Shown here: positions 3,819 to 11,718 of the stretch, one piece after another
Position numbering within the stretch: the first letter of the stretch is position 1
Layout: each line of letters opens with the position of its first letter
IMG/VR virus record: IMGVR_UViG_2602041549_000013
Coordinates: 1 to 15,722 of that record
DNA from: a virus
Lineage: Duplodnaviria; Heunggongvirae; Uroviricota; Caudoviricetes
DNA: 15,722 bases
Direction: 5' to 3' (one strand)
Notes under the pieces: model-generated
The model's input: only the letters and a program-made list of their open reading frames with translations
What the model was told of the DNA's origin: nothing
The model's database searches: none
Program-made: the position numbers and the translations under genes

Positions 3819-4855
3819 TGGGAAAGAGTAAGAAGAACCGAGCTGCGGCGACGAAACAGATCCAGCTTAAAAGTCAAACTACAGCCGAAGCATTCAGCTT
3901 CGGCGATCCCGTTCCTGTTCTGGACCGCCGTGAACTGCTGGACTATGTGGAATGCGTACAGATGGACCGTTGGTATGAGCCGCCCGTCAGCTTTGACGGA
4001 CTGGCGCGCACCTTCCGCGCCGCCGTGCATCACAGTTCCCCGATTGCAGTAAAGTGCAACATTCTGACCAGTACCTATATCCCTCATCCGCTGCTCAGCC
4101 AGCAGGCTTTTTCGCGTTTTGTGCAGGACTATCTGGTATTTGGTAACGCCTACCTGGAGAAACGCACGAACCGATTCGGTGAAGTTATCGCCCTTGAGCC
4201 TGCCCTGGCAAAATACACCCGACGTGGATTAGACCTGGATACCTACTGGTTTGTGCAATACGGCATGACAACGCAACCGTATCAGTTCACGAAAGGCAGC
4301 ATTTTTCACCTGATGGAACCGGATATCAACCAGGAGATCTACGGCCTGCCCGGTTATCTTTCTGCCATTCCGTCAGCCCTGCTCAACGAGTCCGCCACGC
4401 TGTTCCGTCGAAAGTATTACATTAACGGCAGTCATGCAGGCTTCATCATGTACATGACCGACGCCGCGCAGAACCAGGAGGATGTAAACAACCTCCGTAA
4501 CGCGATGAAAAGCGCCAAAGGACCAGGTAACTTCCGCAATCTGTTTATGTACTCGCCTAACGGCAAAAAGGACGGACTTCAGATCATCCCATTGTCAGAA
4601 GTCGCGGCGAAGGATGAGTTTCTGAATATCAAAAATGTCAGCCGCGATGACATGATGGCAGCGCACCGTGTGCCACCGCAAATGATGGGGATTATGCCGA
4701 ATAATATTGGGGGGTTTGGGGATGTGGAGAAGGCAAGCCGTGTATTCGTCCGAAATGAGCTAATGCCACTACAAAAGCGATTACAGGAGATGAATGATTG
4801 GCTTGGCAAGGAGGCGATACGGTTTGATACCTACTCGCTAGATATAGCCCCATAA
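3818..4855 (+). CDS. Q: portal (capsid completion) protein (P2 gpQ-like), 345 aa from ATG 3818
   Basis: ATG at 3818 overlaps the P stop TGA (ATGA coupling); the ORF track starts 3 nt earlier at a TTG. Size and position match P2 gpQ. Confidence 0.85.
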   Translation: MGKSKKNRAAATKQIQLKSQTTAEAFSFGDPVPVLDRRELLDYVECVQMDRWYEPPVSFDGLARTFRAAVHHSSPIAVKCNILTSTYIPHPLLSQQAFSRFVQDYLVFGNAYLEKRTNRFGEVIALEPALAKYTRRGLDLDTYWFVQYGMTTQPYQFTKGSIFHLMEPDINQEIYGLPGYLSAIPSALLNESATLFRRKYYINGSHAGFIMYMTDAAQNQEDVNNLRNAMKSAKGPGNFRNLFMYSPNGKKDGLQIIPLSEVAAKDEFLNIKNVSRDDMMAAHRVPPQMMGIMPNNIGGFGDVEKASRVFVRNELMPLQKRLQEMNDWLGKEAIRFDTYSLDIAP

Positions 4856-4857
4856 TA

Positions 4858-4884
4858 AGAAAAGCCACCGTTTGGTGGCTTTTC
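4858..4884. terminator. bidirectional intrinsic terminator between convergent Q and the kinase operon
   Basis: GCCACC-GTTT-GGTGGC hairpin flanked by an A-run upstream and TTTTCTTC downstream, lying between the Q stop (4855) and the - strand stop at 4890. Confidence 0.6.
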
Positions 4885-4889
4885 TTCAT

Positions 4890-5630
4890 TTACTCAATAG
4901 GTTCAAACTCATCTTGAGGAATCAGCGTCGATTGACAGGCTTGGCTTAGTACCCCTGATAATTTACATAATAACCGATAGTTATGAGGAGCATCATCGCT
5001 AATCTTTTCGACCGTTAAAGTGATTGATTTTGGATCATCCAATAACATCTTCTTGATGTCATTACTTAAATACCTAGGGCAGTAACCAACGATTTCAGCT
5101 GGTTTATCTGCACGAACGACAACAGCATCCCCATCGTATTCATTTTGAAGATCCAAGCAAAGACGCAAAATTTGCCCCGGTTTCAATTCAGATACACGAG
5201 CATTAGCTAAGCTATTCAAGTAACCAAGTCCATGTAAGAAGAAAAAATGCTCAAAGTTACCATCAGAATCAAAATCAATTTTTTTGAAAATCTGCAGCTG
5301 ATCAGTGCTTCGTAAGCCTCCCGAGCGAGCAAGAATATCGATAGGATTTACCTTATCTTCTTCAAATCCAAGCCATTTAATGAAACTCGGATACTCTGGA
5401 CGTCTCGGTGATAAAAGGCGATTTTTAAAAAGAGGAAACAATTCTTCCGATACATAAGTTTCACGAACATCACTCATGCCGCTAAACTTTGTAAATTTAG
5501 AAGATTTAAGAGCACCTTTGGTATACCTGAAAACATACCCCGATTTGCGCTCTTGCAAGTTACCAACAACATGCCAGTCTCTGGTATCTGGTGCCTGCCA
5601 TGCGACGTAAACGGAGTTTGTATTAGTCAT
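4890..5630 (-). CDS. kinase partner protein, 246 aa: N-terminal HipA-N/HipS-like region (approx. aa 1-110) fused to a HIRAN-like domain (approx. aa 125-215)
   Basis: Start ATG overlaps the kinase stop (ATGA at 5627-5630). N-terminal VVGNL...YVFRY...LFPLFKNRLLSPRRPE resembles the HipA N-subdomain-1 / HipS pattern; C-terminal LGYL...LKPGQILRLCLDLQNEYDGDAVVV...VGYCPRYLS resembles the HIRAN pattern. Domain calls are from motif memory, not a search. Confidence 0.5.
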   Translation of the reverse strand: MTNTNSVYVAWQAPDTRDWHVVGNLQERKSGYVFRYTKGALKSSKFTKFSGMSDVRETYVSEELFPLFKNRLLSPRRPEYPSFIKWLGFEEDKVNPIDILARSGGLRSTDQLQIFKKIDFDSDGNFEHFFFLHGLGYLNSLANARVSELKPGQILRLCLDLQNEYDGDAVVVRADKPAEIVGYCPRYLSNDIKKMLLDDPKSITLTVEKISDDAPHNYRLLCKLSGVLSQACQSTLIPQDEFEPIE

Positions 5631-6541
5631 TCTAGTAACCTTCTGCGATTTTCCATTACCATTAACGTTGCAAATCTACGTGCACTGTCGGATATACACG
5701 ATGAAGGCACTTGGTTAAACACATCTGTAATGGAATCTTCTGTTAAAACGCTCAACTTACCTAACCAATGGTCGCGAGCGGCAACTCTCCCTTCAACTGC
5801 ATGTTGAAATGCTTCAACAGTCAGCAAGGGCTTTTTATCAGTTTTTGCTTTGAATAGCTCAGAGCGAGCTTTTCTTACAAAACATGGGATTTGTCGATTT
5901 TTATCTTTAGTATTAAGCCGTTCGCTACGCTCATCATCTAACATCTCCCTTCCTAAACTAGCGGCATGATCGTATGTTGGACACAAAAACTGCTCACCAG
6001 TTTCATTGTTAAGCATGATTGCCCAATTTTCATGGTGGCGATCTTGATTACTCACAAGTGCATCGAGCATCAAATATCCACAAAATACATCTGCTGCATT
6101 TAGCCCGGTTAGATCATATACACTCGGAGGAGGCTTGATAGATTCCCTATCTAAACAACCCAAGACCCTTGTGACAGTGTGTTCTCTGACCCTTACCGGC
6201 TTTTCCCCGGCTTGTAAAGGCCCAGGATAATCGAATGTCGAACTGTGAAGCACTTCATTTCCCATTACCATCCGGAAACCAGATGGAATGATATTCTGAG
6301 TCACCACACCGAATCGACCATTGTATCGCGCCAAATCATAGCTAGCATGTGGAATGTTAAGCAAATGACATAACTCAGCAGCACACTTTTCAGACCAATG
6401 CTCGCCAGTACCTGGCCTAGAGTACTTAAACAACTGCAAATTTACAGTGTCATCGGAGAAATAGAACCAAAACTTCTCTTTGGTTCCTAACTGTTCAAGA
6501 TCGTTAGCTACGGGGCTAAGCTCTACCAATTGGTATGGCAT
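5627..6541 (-). CDS. short HipA-family (HipT-like) Ser/Thr protein kinase, 304 aa
   Basis: Gly-rich loop GTKEK near the N-terminus (aa 19-23); catalytic motif D167-R-H-H-E-N172 and downstream LCPTYD191 match the HipA catalytic and Mg-binding aspartate motifs. Region is visibly AT-richer than the phage backbone. Confidence 0.75.
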   Translation of the reverse strand: MPYQLVELSPVANDLEQLGTKEKFWFYFSDDTVNLQLFKYSRPGTGEHWSEKCAAELCHLLNIPHASYDLARYNGRFGVVTQNIIPSGFRMVMGNEVLHSSTFDYPGPLQAGEKPVRVREHTVTRVLGCLDRESIKPPPSVYDLTGLNAADVFCGYLMLDALVSNQDRHHENWAIMLNNETGEQFLCPTYDHAASLGREMLDDERSERLNTKDKNRQIPCFVRKARSELFKAKTDKKPLLTVEAFQHAVEGRVAARDHWLGKLSVLTEDSITDVFNQVPSSCISDSARRFATLMVMENRRRLLE

Positions 6542-6693
6542 CTGACATCCCTGTTTAGCGGATTATGAATAAGTTAGGTTCCATTTTATCCAAACATTGT
6601 CAAATACCCTAAGATTTATTAGATGATAGAGCGATACTGTATGCATGTCCAGCAATCAAATCAATATATAACTCTTATATGGCTTAACGCGCG

Positions 6694-6712
6694 CTCGTAT
6701 CCCCGCCACGCC
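6694..6712. other. candidate cohesive-end (cos) site
   Basis: Reverse complement GGCGTGGCGGGGATACGAG shares its first 13 nt with the 186-type cohesive end as I recall it (GGCGTGGCGGGGAAAGCAT); orientation and position beyond Q are as expected. Recalled sequence, not verified. Confidence 0.35.
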
Positions 6713-6761
6713 TGCCCGCTTTATGTAGTGGTTTTCATGCAGGTGCATGATCTACGCAAAA

Positions 6762-6781
6762 GCCCGCCAGTTCTGGCGGGC
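6762..6781 (-). terminator. perfect 9-bp stem hairpin next to the cos candidate; possible - strand terminator or part of the cos/terminase region
   Basis: GCCCGCCAG-TT-CTGGCGGGC; on the - strand it is followed by TTTTGCG. Confidence 0.35.
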
Positions 6782-7054
6782 CTTAGCAAAAACGATCCTC
6801 AAACGATCATGCAATCTCATGCAGCATAGACATGCACAGACGAGTAAAGCGAATCGGACTTTACGCAAGGTGAACTCCTCAGCGGGTATAATCAGTATGT
6901 CGGAAAATCTCTAAAAATAAATAATTCGGTTAACAGGTATGCTTACAAAAGCATATATTTGATTAAAAATCATGTAAGGGGGAGGATCTCAAACTGAATC
7001 GCCACGGGTTTTGCAAATTTCGATAGTCTCTCTAACGTTTCGGCTGAGGTCAAA

Positions 7055-7480
7055 ATGAAAAGCTTTTACGTATTAATTTTAATTCTGGTTGCAAGCTTTG
7101 TTAGCGTCCCAGTTCAGGCGGTAACAGCTAAAAACTATGAGAAAGGAACTAAAGCTCAACAGAAATCAATAGCTTACCTTTCATGTGCATTCTATGGCAG
7201 TAGCACACAATTAGATCCTAGCTACACGGGGCAAGTACCTACAGCCGATATCAAGATATTACAGAAAGCAGCTTACCACGCTTACAACGATGCGCTCTCA
7301 TACTTAGGCTATGAGGAACCAGATCACGAACAACGCATAATTGATTATGCTGAATTTGTGGCGTCGCAAGAAGCTGTGTTATGGGATAAGCCGGGAATGA
7401 ATGGAAAGCAGGTAACACTAATTGCTCGTTCTCTCTACAATGAGAGTAACTGTAACTTGTTACTGGACTCAATTAAGTAG
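7055..7480 (+). CDS. secreted protein of unknown function, 141 aa, with a cleavable signal peptide
   Basis: RBS GAGGT upstream of the ATG; N-terminal MKSFYVLILILVASFVSVPVQA with AxA-type cleavage site; two Cys in the mature part; AT-rich gene and upstream region. Confidence 0.55.
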   Translation: MKSFYVLILILVASFVSVPVQAVTAKNYEKGTKAQQKSIAYLSCAFYGSSTQLDPSYTGQVPTADIKILQKAAYHAYNDALSYLGYEEPDHEQRIIDYAEFVASQEAVLWDKPGMNGKQVTLIARSLYNESNCNLLLDSIK

Positions 7481-7639
7481 GAAAAAGATGGTATTTTGCC
7501 CGTAGTTTCAACCTTAATCTCCGAACCTGTCGCAGAACGGGCGTTCACTCATCAAATAAACGCCACACCTAACGCCTCACTGTACTCGTTGTTCAACCTT
7601 GCTGACGCCAGAACCAAGTTCAGACGCCAGCAACTTTTC

Positions 7640-7873
7640 TTAATGCAGCCAGCTGTCGTCTTCCCACACCTTCTGCATAATTTTCATCACTTGTTTTCTT
7701 TCTTCGTCCAGTTGCAGTCCGGTCAGTTCCACACCGTTAGAGCTACCTTTGCGGATGCGAATTACCGTTTTGGGATACAGGGGGCGCAGATTGCGGTAAA
7801 GCTCTGATTCAAGGGCGTCCAGGGTAGACTGGTTAATCTTCTGCTCTTTATCGATCATTATTTCAATGCGCAT
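7640..7873 (-). CDS. DinI-family protein, 77 aa from ATG 7873
   Basis: MRIEIMIDK...LDALESEL...YP...WEDDSW aligns with the E. coli DinI pattern; GAGGTG RBS 6 nt upstream of the ATG; the longer ORF-track start at 7945 is not used. Confidence 0.8.
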   Translation of the reverse strand: MRIEIMIDKEQKINQSTLDALESELYRNLRPLYPKTVIRIRKGSSNGVELTGLQLDEERKQVMKIMQKVWEDDSWLH

Positions 7874-7883
7874 AAAAGTCACC

Positions 7884-8072
7884 TCAACTGATGACATCCA
7901 TTGAGCGGTTGTATTCGTGAGTTCTGATTTTTGCCATGAGTTCATCAGTCAACTCAGAAACCCACTGCAGAGCCAGCCCCTTCTCTTCATCACTACACTC
8001 ACTAGCCGCTACAAGCTTAAGAAAAAAATCAATGCGCTGGAGCTTCAAAGACTCCAAAAAATAGTCCTGCAT
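7884..8072 (-). CDS. small SOS-regulated protein, 62 aa; possible Tum-like antirepressor
   Basis: First gene downstream of the LexA box; AGGAGG RBS before ATG 8072; forms an operon with the DinI-like gene. The 97-aa version from 8177 would contain the LexA box and is rejected. Function is inferred by position only, by analogy with the 186 tum operon as I recall it. Confidence 0.45.
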   Translation of the reverse strand: MQDYFLESLKLQRIDFFLKLVAASECSDEEKGLALQWVSELTDELMAKIRTHEYNRSMDVIS

Positions 8073-8113
8073 CTTTCCTCCTATGACACCACACGCAACA
8101 CTGTATGTATAAC

Positions 8114-8133
8114 CACTGTTTATATTTACAGTA
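8114..8133 (-). promoter_or_regulatory. LexA (SOS) box in the promoter of the small-ORF/DinI operon
   Basis: CACTGTTTATATTTACAGTA has a perfect CTGT-N8-ACAG core and matches 17 of 20 positions of the consensus TACTGTATATATATACAGTA; an extra CTGT half-site at 8101-8104; a TTTACA -35-like hexamer lies at 8151-8156 on the - strand. Confidence 0.7.
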
Positions 8134-8225
8134 TATAATAATCTTACTGATGTAAAACGTTTTTTTACATTCATCACCCTGATATACCTGGTATTATTAA
8201 GAGCACGAATTGTTAACCCGCGTAA

Positions 8226-10640
8226 TTAATACAGGTTCCGCCACTGATCATCTTCCTGCAAACGCTGGTTCCGATAGAAGATACGCAGGCCTGCTCCTGA
8301 CGGAATACTGCCTCCGCGAAGGAGTAAATCGACCTCTTTCTCGCTGCCATCAAATCCTCTGGACTTCAGCTCATACACGAGCTGCAGTCGCTGATGGTCT
8401 GTAATTCGCTGTTTGTAGTCTTTACGCCGTTTCGGTTTCACCAGGCGTAACCTTGCAGCCAGTTCCCGGCGCTCTTTTTTGCTCATACTGTGCAGGTAAT
8501 CGTGCAACTCCTTGTCATCCATGCGGGTAATGTCCGTTCTGGTATCCCCATCAGCTGATTTGTCTTTCCCTTGTTGGTTCAAATTTTCAGCAAGGGGACA
8601 GTTATTGCCACGAGTCCAAGGGGCGCAAGCGCCCTGGTCGGCTGCCGCCTCCTGAACGTCAACGGCCTTACGAACCATTTTCCACTTCACTGCATGAGTG
8701 CAGATCTTGCCCTCTGCAATGGGTGACCAGATGCCATAAATACGAATACCGTGATCGCCATAGGCGGTTGGCTCTTCGTTGATTTCATAAGCGGTTCTGA
8801 TGAGGTGATATTTGCGGGAAACCAGTACGCCGCCCTGCTTCATGATGTAGGTGGCAAAACAACCAGCATCAGCAGCAGCCAGGATGGCATCAAGGCGCGG
8901 GTTATCCAGTACCGGCGCACCTGCTTTTTTGTCACCCTGTTGCCTTGCCGCCTGACCAGCCAGCAATCGCAGTTCACGGTAAGCCTGACGCCCCGGAATG
9001 CCAAAGAAGCGGAATTGCTGAACACGATGCAGAGACGCCCAGGCATTAACGTATTCAGCGTTATCACGCAGGGATTTACCCGTTTCCTTACTGATCTCGC
9101 CAGCCAGACCACACCCGTCAATATTCTTACTGATATATTTCGCAATGTAGCTTGTCGGCGTTCCTTTGCGCGGGTTTATCAGCTCAGACTTAAAGCGTGG
9201 CCCCGTGTTATTGCCCAGCTCCTCGCGGTCTTCACGGATGGCAAACTTACGCAACAATGCAGTAATGGCGCGGCGGTCTTTTTTACGCATGAAACACAAC
9301 AGGTGCCAGTGAACTGTGCCGTCATGATGCGGCTCAGCCACCCGCACGCCATACCAGCGCAACCCGGCTTTGTGCATAGCCTTACGAAATGCAGCAAACA
9401 TGCCGACCAGATAATCGCTGCTTTGTCTTACTGTCGCGTTGGTCCAGGTCGGGTTTGGCCTGCCGTTATTTAGCGTGGAATGGAAACGTGACGGACAGGT
9501 GATGGTGTAGAAAACGGCGCAGTCACCACGCATTTCCGCGATAAGCTCCAGGCCTTTAACACAGGCCATCATCTCATTGCGGCGATGCGCCGGGTTGCTG
9601 CTGCTGGCGTTTACCACATCCTCCATGTTCAGCGTGTCGCCGTCTTCGTTCACCAGTTCATGAGAACGGAAAAACTCCAGCGACTTACGGCGCTGCTCAC
9701 GTTTATGCATCACGGCTTCATAGCTGACATAGGGAGATGCTTTTTTGCTGACCAGGCAGACAGCACGCAACTGCTCTTCCCGCCATTCGCAACGCATCTT
9801 CCATAATTTCCGATACCACCAGTCGGCGCACAGCATACGCGCCAGCGAACCCGGAATGAGTTCATAGGGCACAGGTTTGCGGCGGTTTCTTTTCCGGCGG
9901 AGTTGCTCAAACGCAGGCGGTATGACATCCAGTCGCAGGGTTTCTGCAGCCACCTTTTCCCATGTCTTGCGGATTTCTTCTGGCTTAACATCATCGGAGG
10001 CGTACAAATCACCACAAGCGGCATCAAGACACATGCTCATATGCGCAGCGACAAGGGTAGACAGGCGTTTCACCTGATCCTGACTCATTTCAGGCAGGAT
10101 CAGCAGACCGTCCAGCCCTTCATGGCTTGCCATAAAACGAAAAGATGCAGATAGCTGGCTGTCGCGTACATGCTCCAGTCGTTCCAGACATGGCTTAATC
10201 GTCTCACGCAAATAGCGGGAATAAGCCTTTGGCCTGCCCAGGCTGCTGAAATATTCAATACGTTGCATCAGCGGCTTGCTGATATGGGAAGGCTGGGCGT
10301 TGACGTCGGCCAGAATGACCATGTCCGGATTAAAACGCTGCTGCTCATGCGCCATCTTTGCCCGGCTAATGAGCTTATCCTGCTCCATTTCGCGTTGGAC
10401 AGGATCACGGGATTCATTAAAGAAATAACGCTCCCAGACCTGATCACTCAGTGCCTCGCGGCGCAACTGTTCCTGCTCGTTATCGGCAGCGTACAGAGTG
10501 ATCAGGTTTGAAAGCGTAGAAACCGGCGCAACTTCCGCCGGGTCCAGATAAGGGTTAATGGCCTTTTTCGGGCTGTTCCATGAGAATGCTGCGGCAGCCT
10601 CGTTAAAGCCGCAGCAGTTGTTCATATCGGCATGACTCAT
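8226..10640 (-). CDS. A: rolling-circle replication initiator / endonuclease (P2 gpA-like), 804 aa
   Basis: HUH-type motif VHWHLL and active-site tyrosine motif YIAKYISK typical of gpA-type Rep proteins; start ATG overlaps the dam stop (ATGA). Confidence 0.85.
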
Positions 10641-11494
10641 GCACGTACTCCGTACACGGCAGAACTATCCACGCCACGCGAATAATCAAATCCCATCCAG
10701 CAGCGCGGCCCGGAAACAGCAATGATTTCTGTTGCTGATTTACCCTCGCCAGCTGCCACACCGATGCTGCGTTTTACCTTGATATAGTGGTGAGTAAAAT
10801 TGCGATACAGCGAACGGATCAGGGATGTGTCACTGTTAGAAACAATGACTGGATGTCCTTCTGATGACCGATGTTCAAGAACGGATGCCAGGTGATACTG
10901 GTCATCTTCAGTGAAACCATCAGTGTGATAGCCGGAAAACGTACCGTCATACGGCGGATCGCAATACACCACATCTCCCGCCTTCAACATCGCCAGCGTT
11001 TCATCAAAGCTGGCGCAGATAAACGTTGCTCGCTGGGCTTTTTCTGCAAATGTGCGAAGTTCTTTTTCAGGGAAATACGGATTTTTATAATTACCGTAGG
11101 GGATGTTGAAATGCCCGCTCTTGTTATAGCGACATAAACCACGGTAACCGTGACGATTAAGATACAGGAAATATACCGCTTTCATGAAATCAGTAATTTC
11201 AGTTGAGCAGTTAAACTCCTGCCTTATGTTGTAATAAGCCACCTCCCTGTTTGCGATCTCAAATAAAACTCTGGCGCGAGATATAAACGATTCACAATCA
11301 GCGGCAACCTTTTTATAGAGGTTGATTAAATCAGGATTAATATCCGCAACCAGATAGCTGGGATAATCCGTTTCCATCATCACAGCACAGGAACCCGCGA
11401 AAGGTTCAACCAGTCGCGGGCCAGCAGGAAGGTATTTTTTCAGTTCTGGCATAATGGCGGTTTTATTTCCCGCCCATTTCAGGATGGTGCTCAT
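10637..11494 (-). CDS. dam: DNA adenine methyltransferase (Dam family, orphan), 285 aa from ATG 11494
   Basis: N-terminal KWAGNK and FAGSCAV motifs and catalytic DPPY motif; ATG 11494 overlaps the upstream zinc-finger gene stop (ATGA) and follows a GGAGGTG RBS; the ORF-track start at 11554 is not used. Confidence 0.8.
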
Positions 11495-11718
11495 ACAGCA
11501 CCTCCGTTGTAATGTTTGCCTTTCAGTTCTGCGATTTCCTGACAGGTAATGCAAAGCTGCACTCCCGGAATGGCGCGGCGTCGTGCTGGCGGAATTGGCG
11601 CTTCACATTCAATGCAAAGTACGCGTGACACGCCCGGTGATTTGGCACGGGCTGCACGGATATGGCGCTGGCGTTCTTCTTCAACGCGCTGCTGTACGAG
11701 ATCCATTGCATCAGCCAT
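11491..11718 (-). CDS. TraR/DksA-family C4 zinc-finger protein, 75 aa
   Basis: Two CxxC pairs (CIECEAPIP ... CITCQ) in a small basic protein; common position in P2-like early operons. Confidence 0.7.
   Translation of the reverse strand: MADAMDLVQQRVEEERQRHIRAARAKSPGVSRVLCIECEAPIPPARRRAIPGVQLCITCQEIAELKGKHYNGGAV

Follow-up and report, generated by a model that had tools for sequence, protein, structure and literature searches.

Organization of the hipIN locus

A window of 15,722 nucleotides from a P2/186-like prophage was analysed. Open reading frame calls and translations defined a cassette of two minus-strand genes, hipI and hipN (together hipIN), which are listed with their associated features in Table 1. 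The 4 bp overlap between them is also the most frequent hipI/hipN arrangement in related genome and viral loci, and purine runs resembling Shine–Dalgarno sequences (AGGGA and GAAGG) are situated 5′ of the two starts. The G+C content is 0.38–0.44 over positions 4800 to 8400 or thereabouts, compared with 0.51–0.62 in the flanking phage genes and core. An earlier, sequence-only reading of this DNA had described two coupled genes that are richer in A+T than their flanks, and both observations were borne out.

Table 1. Positions in the window of the hipIN genes, their domains and motifs, and the features bordering them
Feature	Position	Strand	Remarks
hipI	5627..6541	-	304-aa short HipA-superfamily Ser/Thr kinase without HipA N-subdomain-1
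Gly-rich (ATP-binding) loop G19-T20-K21-E22-K23	6473..6487	-	From sequence; invariant in alignment
Catalytic motif D167-R-H-H-E-N172	6026..6043	-	Invariant; D167/H169/N172 fall on HipA D309/H311/N314 (hhalign)
Y190-D191, Mg-binding Asp motif	5969..5974	-	Invariant; D191 falls on HipA D332 (hhalign)
ATGA stop/start overlap of hipI and hipN	5627..5630	-	Translational coupling; read from sequence
hipN	4890..5630	-	246-aa two-domain partner, HipS-like plus HIRAN
HipS-like (HipA N-subdomain-1-like) domain of HipN	5286..5630	-	About residues 1–115
HIRAN domain of HipN	4947..5252	-	Residues 127–228
Bidirectional intrinsic terminator	4857..4886	.	Common to hipIN and the convergent Q (portal) gene; 13-bp stem, U-rich tails on both strands
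Candidate sigma-70 promoter of hipIN, TGGACA-17-TATCAT	6623..6651	-	10/12 consensus; ~80 nt upstream of the hipI ATG
cos cohesive-end sequence GGCGTGGCGGGGATACGAG	6694..6712	-	P2 match; upstream boundary of the cargo slot

The cassette is situated between the cos site and the stop codon of Q. The cos core and its flank have 20 of 22 bases as in P2, with the motif TGCATGAGATTGCAT also in common, and homology to the backbone of other P2-like phages restarts at about position 6688. On the Q side, where a bidirectional terminator had been predicted, folding established a hairpin that a simple terminator scanner missed; its energies are -21.2 and -20.4 kcal/mol on the two strands (z = -5.2 and -6.9 relative to shuffled sequences), and the annotation of P2 places the tQ terminator at the equivalent position. 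The promoter listed in Table 1 is a candidate identified by its match to the consensus, and such sites are not commoner than in shuffled sequences.

Between the kinase gene and the next conserved phage DNA the only open reading frame is one on the plus strand (6623–6829), for which no match was found in Pfam, PHROG or PADLOC. Searches of the slot's reading frames against the same three collections revealed no HTH or HipB-like protein, as the earlier reading had also concluded. Operator-like repeats, which would be a sign of autoregulation, were not found between cos and hipI, nor were tRNA genes found in the slot by a tRNA scan; the sole match in an Rfam scan of the slot was BSnc120, over the terminator and far below threshold. 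The possibility that hipI and hipN are pseudogenes or chance reading frames was rejected, as the frames are intact, the families comprise thousands of proteins and no residue of the active site varies. The window contributes a well-delimited native operon, comprising a candidate promoter, coupled genes and a terminator, whose position relative to cos is exact.

The HipI kinase

HipI differs from WP_001146828 by a single residue (S206N). It matches the PADLOC model PDC-M03A over its full length (E 2.7e-122) and phrog_8728 (E 9e-184). The match to Pfam HipA_C (PF07804) has an E value of 3e-4 and a score of 20.9 bits, under the gathering score of 30.5 bits; matches to PF07804 are precomputed for many close homologues of HipI. 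Useful PDB matches were absent from sequence-only searches with the single proteins or with a HipN profile, so that structure-based searches were needed. Foldseek comparison of the AlphaFold (AF2) model of HipI (pLDDT 83) gave matches to CtkA (E 1e-10), HipA (2e-6) and HipT, which are strong evidence for the fold.

An alignment of 30 HipI homologues, extending down to 57% identity, was used to assess conservation. The Gly-rich loop, K39, the D167–N172 motif and Y190–D191 are invariant throughout, including the GTKEK, DRHHEN and YD signatures that the sequence-only reading had picked out. The loop, K39, D167/H169/N172 and D191 also align with catalytic residues of HipA, and T20 of the loop is a candidate site of autophosphorylation. 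The equivalences to HipA in Table 1 derive from hhalign comparisons with a single HipA sequence, which had E values of about 0.08–0.1 and positionally sensible alignments, and which serve for residue equivalences only. Motifs and modelled fold together identify HipI as a compact Ser/Thr kinase of the HipA superfamily with an intact active site, in agreement with the original assignment.

The HipN partner

HipN is identical to WP_000185756, matches PDC-M03B over its full length (E 6.8e-93) and corresponds to phrog_8026; its AF2 model has a pLDDT of 88. The HIRAN domain was recognized by Pfam PF08797 with an E value of 1e-13 (51.3 bits; cut-off 24.7). Residues N163, Y165 and D166 align with N91, Y93 and D94 of the 3′-OH pocket of HLTF, and of these N163 and D166 show conservation of 90% or more in Proteobacteria, Cyanobacteria, Planctomycetes and Clostridia alike. 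A clear counterpart of the Trp65 wedge of HipS was not identified in HipN; the invariant loop R77-P78-E79-Y80 is a candidate for the part of HipN that would fill the pocket of the Gly-rich loop. HipN consists of a HipS-fold domain fused to a HIRAN domain, as the earlier description of a HipS/HIRAN partner had it, and the 3′-OH-pocket residues of the HIRAN domain are conserved across phyla.

N-subdomain-1 belongs to the active enzyme in HipA. HipN might, by the same token, be an obligate subunit and not an inhibitor, its HipS-like domain completing the HipA fold and its HIRAN domain recruiting the kinase to DNA ends, where a DNA-bound replication or recombination protein of phage or host would be phosphorylated. 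The kinase-first gene order and translational coupling are suggestive of such a stoichiometric complex, the HipS-like domains of HipN and HipL branch apart from true HipS, and single-chain HipL fusions occur naturally (PMC8262856); moreover, in the work on the HipBST structure its authors present HipS as a modulator that acts allosterically and not just as a plug. HipS nevertheless neutralizes the kinase in both solved HipS–HipT systems, via the kinase active site in HipBST, and in the validated system of a HipA-like kinase and a DUF3037 protein it is toxic to lose the partner. An obligate-subunit role is regarded as unlikely.

Distribution, pairing and mobility of hipIN

The kinase gene was followed by hipN in 79 of 80 species-level genome loci, the exception being cut by a contig end, and in all 55 viral contigs, i.e. 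in every complete locus among the 135 surveyed. The kinase-first order without HipB, which had been remarked upon for this prophage, is a trait of the family across the surveyed loci. No conserved third component was found across the 80 genome loci. The sole recurrent neighbour is a pfkB-family gene, beside which hipIN occupies a fixed chromosomal site in 17 loci of Nostocales; this represents synteny, and the gene is not part of the system.

In P2-like phages hipIN occupies the same slot, even where the A proteins are only 29–98% identical. It was also observed at a moron position in a lambdoid phage, adjoining the integrase in a PM2-like temperate phage, and in a cdi/P4-like island. Among complete E. 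coli genomes it is present in 21 of 5426. These results show that hipI and hipN move as one unit among islands and temperate phages that are unrelated to each other. Recognizable mobile elements do not carry all copies, the exceptions including those at the Nostocales site and, in Vibrio cholerae, a two-gene islet amid housekeeping genes, and these count against a reading of hipIN as mobile defence cargo.

Another reading is that HipI has nothing to do with phages and serves in lysogenic conversion or acts on the host, e.g. as an effector like CtkA or by regulating host dormancy. This would be in keeping with retention of the pair at a fixed site in Nostocales and with the nearest solved structure, that of the Helicobacter pylori pro-inflammatory kinase CtkA. 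No signal peptide was obvious, however, when the HipI sequence was judged by eye, the family spans free-living marine and soil bacteria as well as cyanobacteria, and this reading would give no reason for the tight linkage of the kinase with a domain that binds DNA ends. This explanation is considered very improbable.

The sequence-only reading had placed the pair in the A–Q interval. That interval is a published P2 hotspot, in which more than one-third of the cloned systems are antiviral, and the published table of P2 loci lists the hipIN accessions together with DarTG and Mrr (PMC9122126). The placement was upheld in general and refined in detail, to the cosL–Q side and not the A-side slot of tin and old. 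Presence in this hotspot counts against a plain addiction or stabilization system, in which HipI would kill or arrest cells after loss of the prophage or island and HipN would act merely as a labile antitoxin with no role in defence. A simple antitoxin would moreover not require a HIRAN domain with DNA-end-binding residues conserved across phyla, and the related pair of HipA-like kinase and DUF3037 protein defends against phage. The toxin–antitoxin-like architecture, strict pairing, presence on several kinds of mobile element and solitary chromosomal copies without defence neighbours all accord with addiction, and HipA-family modules first became known as toxin–antitoxin and persistence loci (PMC8262856). 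Addiction as the only function is judged unlikely, and addiction and defence roles are in any case not mutually exclusive.

Proposed function

hipIN is probably a toxin–antitoxin or anti-phage module, and it is reasonable to propose an abortive-infection or toxin–antitoxin function for it. The reading favoured here, which we hold to be somewhat probable, is that the cassette is accessory cargo of the hipIN (PDC-M03) type, which a P2/186-like prophage carries in the cosL–Q interval of its cos-proximal hotspot, and that it would operate as a DNA-end-triggered abortive-infection module. We infer that HipI would be toxic and would have a kinase target, that HipN would neutralize it and sense DNA ends, and that the pair would confer protection against phages.

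The HIRAN domain of HipN would, in this scheme, sense free DNA 3′ ends from an infecting phage, the sources of which could be linear DNA as it is injected, intermediates of replication or recombination, or host DNA that has been degraded. HipI, freed by DNA binding or by loss of HipN, would then phosphorylate an essential translation factor, by analogy with HipA (GltX) and HipT (TrpS). Growth and phage production would halt, resulting in abortive infection, and the prophage would benefit from the exclusion of competing phages.

Counting against this reading are the HipA_C score under the Pfam gathering threshold, the failure to identify a clear Trp65 counterpart and the separate branch formed by the HipS-like domains of HipN and HipL. 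P2/186-type phages, too, themselves generate free 3′-OH ends, through nicking by the A protein and cutting at cos; were 3′ ends alone the trigger, the carrier phage would have to be spared by some means. The more specific proposal that HipN senses the 3′ ends of foreign DNA directly and thereby activates a protein-kinase effector is put forward tentatively, and with some doubt. If true, no earlier immune module of prokaryotes would have a kinase toxin gated by a HIRAN domain, and the siting of hipIN beside cosL might reflect selection for keeping out phages and satellites of the cos or rolling-circle type. hipIN provides a clean handle on what triggers HipA-family kinases, as a nucleic-acid sensor (HIRAN) is fused to a kinase-regulating HipS fold; the P2-borne copy from E. 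coli is a convenient experimental object.

Comparison with known systems

The implication of the sequence-only reading that the architecture is novel was not sustained. hipIN modules, consisting of a short kinase (HipI) followed by a partner with HipS-like and HIRAN domains (HipN), were named by Gerdes, Baerentsen & Brodersen (2021, mBio), who studied 14 of them and at that time put forward the hypothesis of abortive infection set off by the sensing of DNA ends (PMC8262856). The present cassette agrees with their description in all features compared, with no difference in kind. At 304 aa the kinase lies within the 279–321 aa given for HipI, lacks N-subdomain-1 and has its Gly-rich loop near the N-terminus (GTKEK at 19–23); it carries the core motifs (Gly-rich loop, D-x-H-x-x-N and Mg-binding D), and the partner gene is directly downstream. 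The distribution of the family, in Proteobacteria plus Cyanobacteria, is consistent with that of their fourth HipI subclade, the HipI subclades belonging to main clade XI.

In PADLOC the same architecture is the two-gene phage defence candidate PDC-M03, described in one paper as HipA and HIRAN domain proteins, and the adjacent genes of the cassette match both of its models. Assignment to PD-T4, PD-T7, PD-Lambda or any other named PADLOC system was rejected, as the PDC-M03 models alone match. PDC-M03 has the status of a candidate, and the literature searched contained neither a validation of it nor an experimental study of hipIN; the earlier statement that no system of this architecture has been characterized still appears to be true. 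WP_001146828 and WP_000185756 are among the P2-encoded loci in Tables S5 and S6 of Rousset et al. (2022), where a Vibrio hotspot system is also labelled HIRAN-kinase; hipIN is not among the cloned and tested systems of their Table S2, in which the sole HipA entry is 'Exonuclease + HipA' (PMC9122126).

HipBST of E. coli O127:H6 and Legionella resembles hipIN in being a split HipA, with a short kinase and a separate HipS-fold protein. It has three genes in the order B-S-T, including the HTH protein HipB, whereas hipIN has two, with the kinase first, no HipB and the HipS fold fused to HIRAN. Membership of hipBST was rejected on these grounds, there being no free-standing HipS of ~100 aa, and that of canonical hipBA because the slot has no HTH reading frame and the kinase is 304 aa long, against about 440 aa for HipA with its N-subdomains. 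HipL has the kinase, HipS-like and HIRAN parts in the same order but in a single polypeptide; here a TGA stop and the ATGA overlap split the kinase from the HipS–HIRAN protein. In sequence HipI is nearer to CtkA than to HipT, and CtkA (H. pylori JHP940; PDB 3akj) is its best structural and profile match (TM 0.67–0.74; profile E 6e-4). Identity to CtkA is 13–16%, however, and the PDB entry, which describes a pro-inflammatory kinase, shows no HIRAN partner.

The pair of HipA-like kinase and DUF3037 protein (PDC-M66, also DS-6 or HipAD) likewise combines a kinase of the HipA superfamily with a partner other than HipB. Experiments have shown this system to be anti-phage, deletion of the kinase abolishing defence and deletion of the partner being toxic. 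Its partner domains are DUF3037 or DUF1829 and, unlike those of hipIN, do not include HIRAN, and HipI gave no match to the PDC-M66 models at E ≤ 1. As a validated sister system it makes a role of hipIN in defence credible.

The tin and old genes of P2 are non-essential exclusion cargo of the same cos-proximal hotspot, and encode unrelated proteins. They are found at the right end, on the A side of cos, whereas hipIN is on the Q side, where P2 has just 186 bp and the terminator. Earlier literature and databases thus contain the family with its architecture and hotspot location, as well as the hypothesis on its mechanism. What is added here is the cosL–Q location, which is absent from the description of hipIN by Gerdes et al., the survey of pairing, and the range of host elements, from P2-like, lambdoid and PM2-like phages to islands and the Nostocales site.

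Organisation of the cassette and its position relative to cos

The sequence-only reading had described two coupled minus-strand genes, and both open reading frames, hipI (the kinase) and hipN (its partner), were reproduced at the positions claimed, with the ATGA stop/start overlap at 5627-5630. Shine–Dalgarno-like purine-rich runs lie upstream of both start codons. The region is AT-rich, as had been noted: its G+C content is 0.38-0.44 over approximately 4800-8400, whereas the terminase, portal and replication genes on either side have 0.51-0.62. The bidirectional terminator is likewise present, as a 13-bp hairpin with U-rich tails on both strands, situated between the stop codons of hipN and the convergent portal gene, Q; it is much more stable than shuffled sequence (z values of -5.2 and -6.9 for the two strands). 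An Rfam match to the Brucella sRNA BSnc120 (36 bits, under the gathering score of 114) spans the 3′ end of Q and this hairpin, and is probably a mere resemblance to a terminator. A candidate promoter, TGGACA-17-TATCAT, was identified by sequence match 43-89 bp inside cosL, the cos end on the Q side. No operator-like repeats were found between cos and hipI.

Features of the window and methyltransferase-adjoining loci (L-numbers denote surveyed hipIN loci outside the window)
Feature	Position	Strand	Remarks
hipN	4890..5630	-	246 aa ORF
hipI	5627..6541	-	304 aa ORF
Terminator hairpin	4857-4886	both	13 bp
BSnc120 match	4802-4904	+	sub-threshold
cos site	6694-6712, flanks to ~6830	-	GGCGTGGCGGGGATACGAG vs P2 GGCGAGGCGGGGAAAGCAC
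Second variable slot	6837-7568		A side of cos, tin/old position; from comparison with two related prophages
ORF in A-side slot	7055-7480	+	141 aa, phrog_7437 match (unknown function)
DinI-like gene	7640-7945	-	Pfam E 2e-22
D12-class (Dam-like) adenine methyltransferase	10637-11554	-	early operon, adjoins gpA
Methyltransferase-adjoining locus	L094-L096 ~8873-9901		
Methyltransferase-adjoining locus	L138 6882-7982		
Methyltransferase-adjoining locus	L143 3391-4524		
Methyltransferase-adjoining locus	L145 7378-9045		

The window represents a P2/186-like prophage that carries capsid, scaffold, terminase, portal, hipIN, DinI, gpA, Dam-type methylase, CII, CI and integrase genes. Its cos core and flank match P2 at 20 of 22 bases, and the motif TGCATGAGATTGCAT on the A side of cos is common to both phages. 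Given this cos position, and since homology to other P2-like phages restarts at ~6688, hipIN fills the cosL-Q interval, which in the P2 annotation measures 186 bp and contains only the tQ terminator. The placement claimed earlier, in the Q-A variable region, matches the cos-proximal gpA-gpQ defence hotspot of Rousset et al. 2022 (PMC9122126). The cos site divides this hotspot into two slots, with hipIN in the Q-side slot, whereas P2 tin and old lie on the opposite side of cos.

The A-side slot is missing from both related prophages compared. Its ORF has no match in Pfam or PADLOC; by eye, the N terminus resembles a signal peptide (MKSFYVLILILVASFVSVPVQA), and the product may act in the periplasm, in lysogenic conversion or exclusion. 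The DinI-like gene, between this slot and gpA, is kept in related E. coli and Klebsiella P2-like phages. The methyltransferase matches the PADLOC 'orphan methyltransferase' model (E 1.6e-110).

Analysis of HipI and HipN

The kinase motifs proposed for HipI were located at residues 19-23 (GTKEK), 167-172 (DRHHEN) and 190-191 (YD), and are invariant across 30 homologues with identities down to 57 %. On the proposed HipA-family membership, the Pfam HipA_C profile gave an E value of 3e-4, but the score of 20.9 bits is below the 30.5-bit gathering score. The AlphaFold model (pLDDT 83) most closely resembles H. pylori CtkA (E 1e-10, TM ~0.7), also the sole significant PDB sequence-profile match (E 6e-4); next come the HipA proteins of E. 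coli and Shewanella (E ~1e-6 to 1e-5) and HipT of Legionella. HipI D167/H169/N172 and D191 align onto D309/H311/N314 and D332 of K-12 HipA, where the catalytic base and the Asp that binds Mg are found. HipI lacks the HipA N-terminal subdomain, and the Gly-rich loop is therefore at its N terminus. HipI is apparently a catalytically competent kinase of the HipA superfamily.

The HIRAN domain claimed for HipN was detected over threshold by Pfam (residues 127-228, E 1e-13) and occurs in all 28 homologues scanned, 19 of which also gave sub-threshold Couple_hipA matches in the N-terminal half. A profile of HIRAN alone, made with homologues from several phyla, was aligned to HLTF, and HipN Q162-N163-x-Y165-D166-x-x-A169 fell onto HLTF N90-N91-x-Y93-D94-x-x-A97; conservation reaches at least 90 % at N163, D166 and A169. 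In HLTF structures, D94 touches the DNA 3′-OH. HipN combines a HipS fold with a HIRAN domain retaining the residues of the 3′-end pocket. No clear counterpart of the HipS Trp65 wedge was found in HipN, which is a weak point of the abortive-infection proposal. That HipN is an activating or targeting subunit of HipI is judged improbable.

Distribution and genomic contexts of hipIN

HipN directly follows HipI in 79 of 80 species-representative genomes, the exception being interrupted by a contig end, and in 55/55 IMG/VR viral contigs; most often the two genes overlap by 4 bp. No conserved third gene was found in the neighbourhoods of the surveyed loci. The pairing is obligate and translationally coupled. 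That hipIN is purely an addiction module is considered unlikely. When 1.84 billion cluster representatives were searched with a HipN profile, 1618 matched, 313 of them at E <= 1e-30, and nearly all of the 150 best matches listed are two-domain proteins of ~240-270 aa. Of 5426 complete E. coli genomes, 21 carry a near-identical cassette.

Among the 55 viral contigs, 38 have the cassette immediately next to a P2-type portal gene. Portal proteins of the P2-like carriers are 62-99 % identical and A proteins 29-98 %, and the Q-side slot is therefore used across a broad range of P2-like phages. Elsewhere, hipIN is flanked by NinG/Q-like genes and the lysis cassette in a Serratia lambdoid prophage, and lies near lambda-P or Mu-F genes in other phages and beside the integrase in Vibrio phage 10N.222.46.E12_PE001, a PM2-like tailless temperate phage (Vinavirales) of 14.6 kb (L002 4935-6649; 37 % identity, same 4-bp overlap). 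The two genes of hipIN move together by horizontal transfer, reaching moron and hotspot positions in temperate phages that are unrelated. A DNA methyltransferase gene of the N6_N4_Mtase or Eco57I type is the immediate neighbour of the pair in four non-P2 phage contexts; this may be fortuitous, as morons cluster, or reflect a functional link.

Other copies lie outside such phages. A 71 %-identical E. coli variant occupies a genomic island (L085-L089 8001-9663), with a cdiBA locus for contact-dependent inhibition on one side and genes for AlpA, DUF3987 and an AEP primase on the other; the island is a P4-like or integrative element. In Vibrio cholerae (L091-L093 ~7001-8645), a bare two-gene islet is situated in housekeeping surroundings, flanked by AbrB-family and SpoU-methylase genes; no gene of a mobile element or of defence lies closer than 7 kb. 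In 17 loci of the heterocystous Nostocales (L050-L082, e.g. L059 7947-10593), hipIN occupies a fixed chromosomal site beside a pfkB-family sugar kinase gene, with a variable upstream neighbour, which looks like long-term vertical retention rather than carriage on mobile elements. Such stable chromosomal copies are a weak point of the abortive-infection proposal. A role unrelated to phage is regarded as very improbable.

Proposed function and comparison with known systems

In the abortive-infection proposal, HipN's HipS-like domain would keep HipI inactive, the model being HipS of HipS-HipT, which inhibits HipT by blocking its Gly-rich loop. Binding of foreign DNA 3′ ends by HIRAN, or loss of HipN, would lift the inhibition, and the freed HipI would phosphorylate an essential factor, aborting the infection. 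That P2/186-type phages themselves produce 3′ ends is a weak point of the sensing step. The proposal is supported by analogy with PDC-M66/DS-6/HipAD, a HipA-like kinase paired with a DUF3037 protein, which is phage-protective, requires the kinase and is toxic without the partner.

No demonstration of hipIN toxicity, DNA-end sensing or phage block was found in open-access papers and bioRxiv; the remaining value of hipIN is experimental. Gerdes, Baerentsen and Brodersen 2021 list no experimentally analysed members, and proposed that HIRAN detects phage DNA ends and switches on the kinase for abortive infection (PMC8262856). The pair is also absent from the table of cloned systems of Rousset et al. 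(PMC9122126).

Taken together, the feature in the window is real and was correctly read, and it is already catalogued. Both proteins have full-length PADLOC-DB v2 matches (PDC-M03A for HipI, E 2.7e-122; PDC-M03B for HipN, E 6.8e-93) and full-length PHROGs families of unknown function. Rousset et al. list WP_001146828 and WP_000185756 in P2 loci (Table S5), at times accompanied by DarT/Macro or Mrr_cat genes, and name a Vibrio "HIRAN-kinase" (Table S6) (PMC9122126). The HipN encoded in the window has the same sequence as WP_000185756, and the only change in HipI relative to WP_001146828 is S206N. The cassette is therefore the known hipIN, PDC-M03 or "HIRAN-kinase", in the same hotspot and under the same accessions. 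Its organisation is exactly that defined as hipIN by Gerdes et al.: the short kinase HipI leads, HipN with its HipS-like and HIRAN parts follows, and HipB is absent (PMC8262856).
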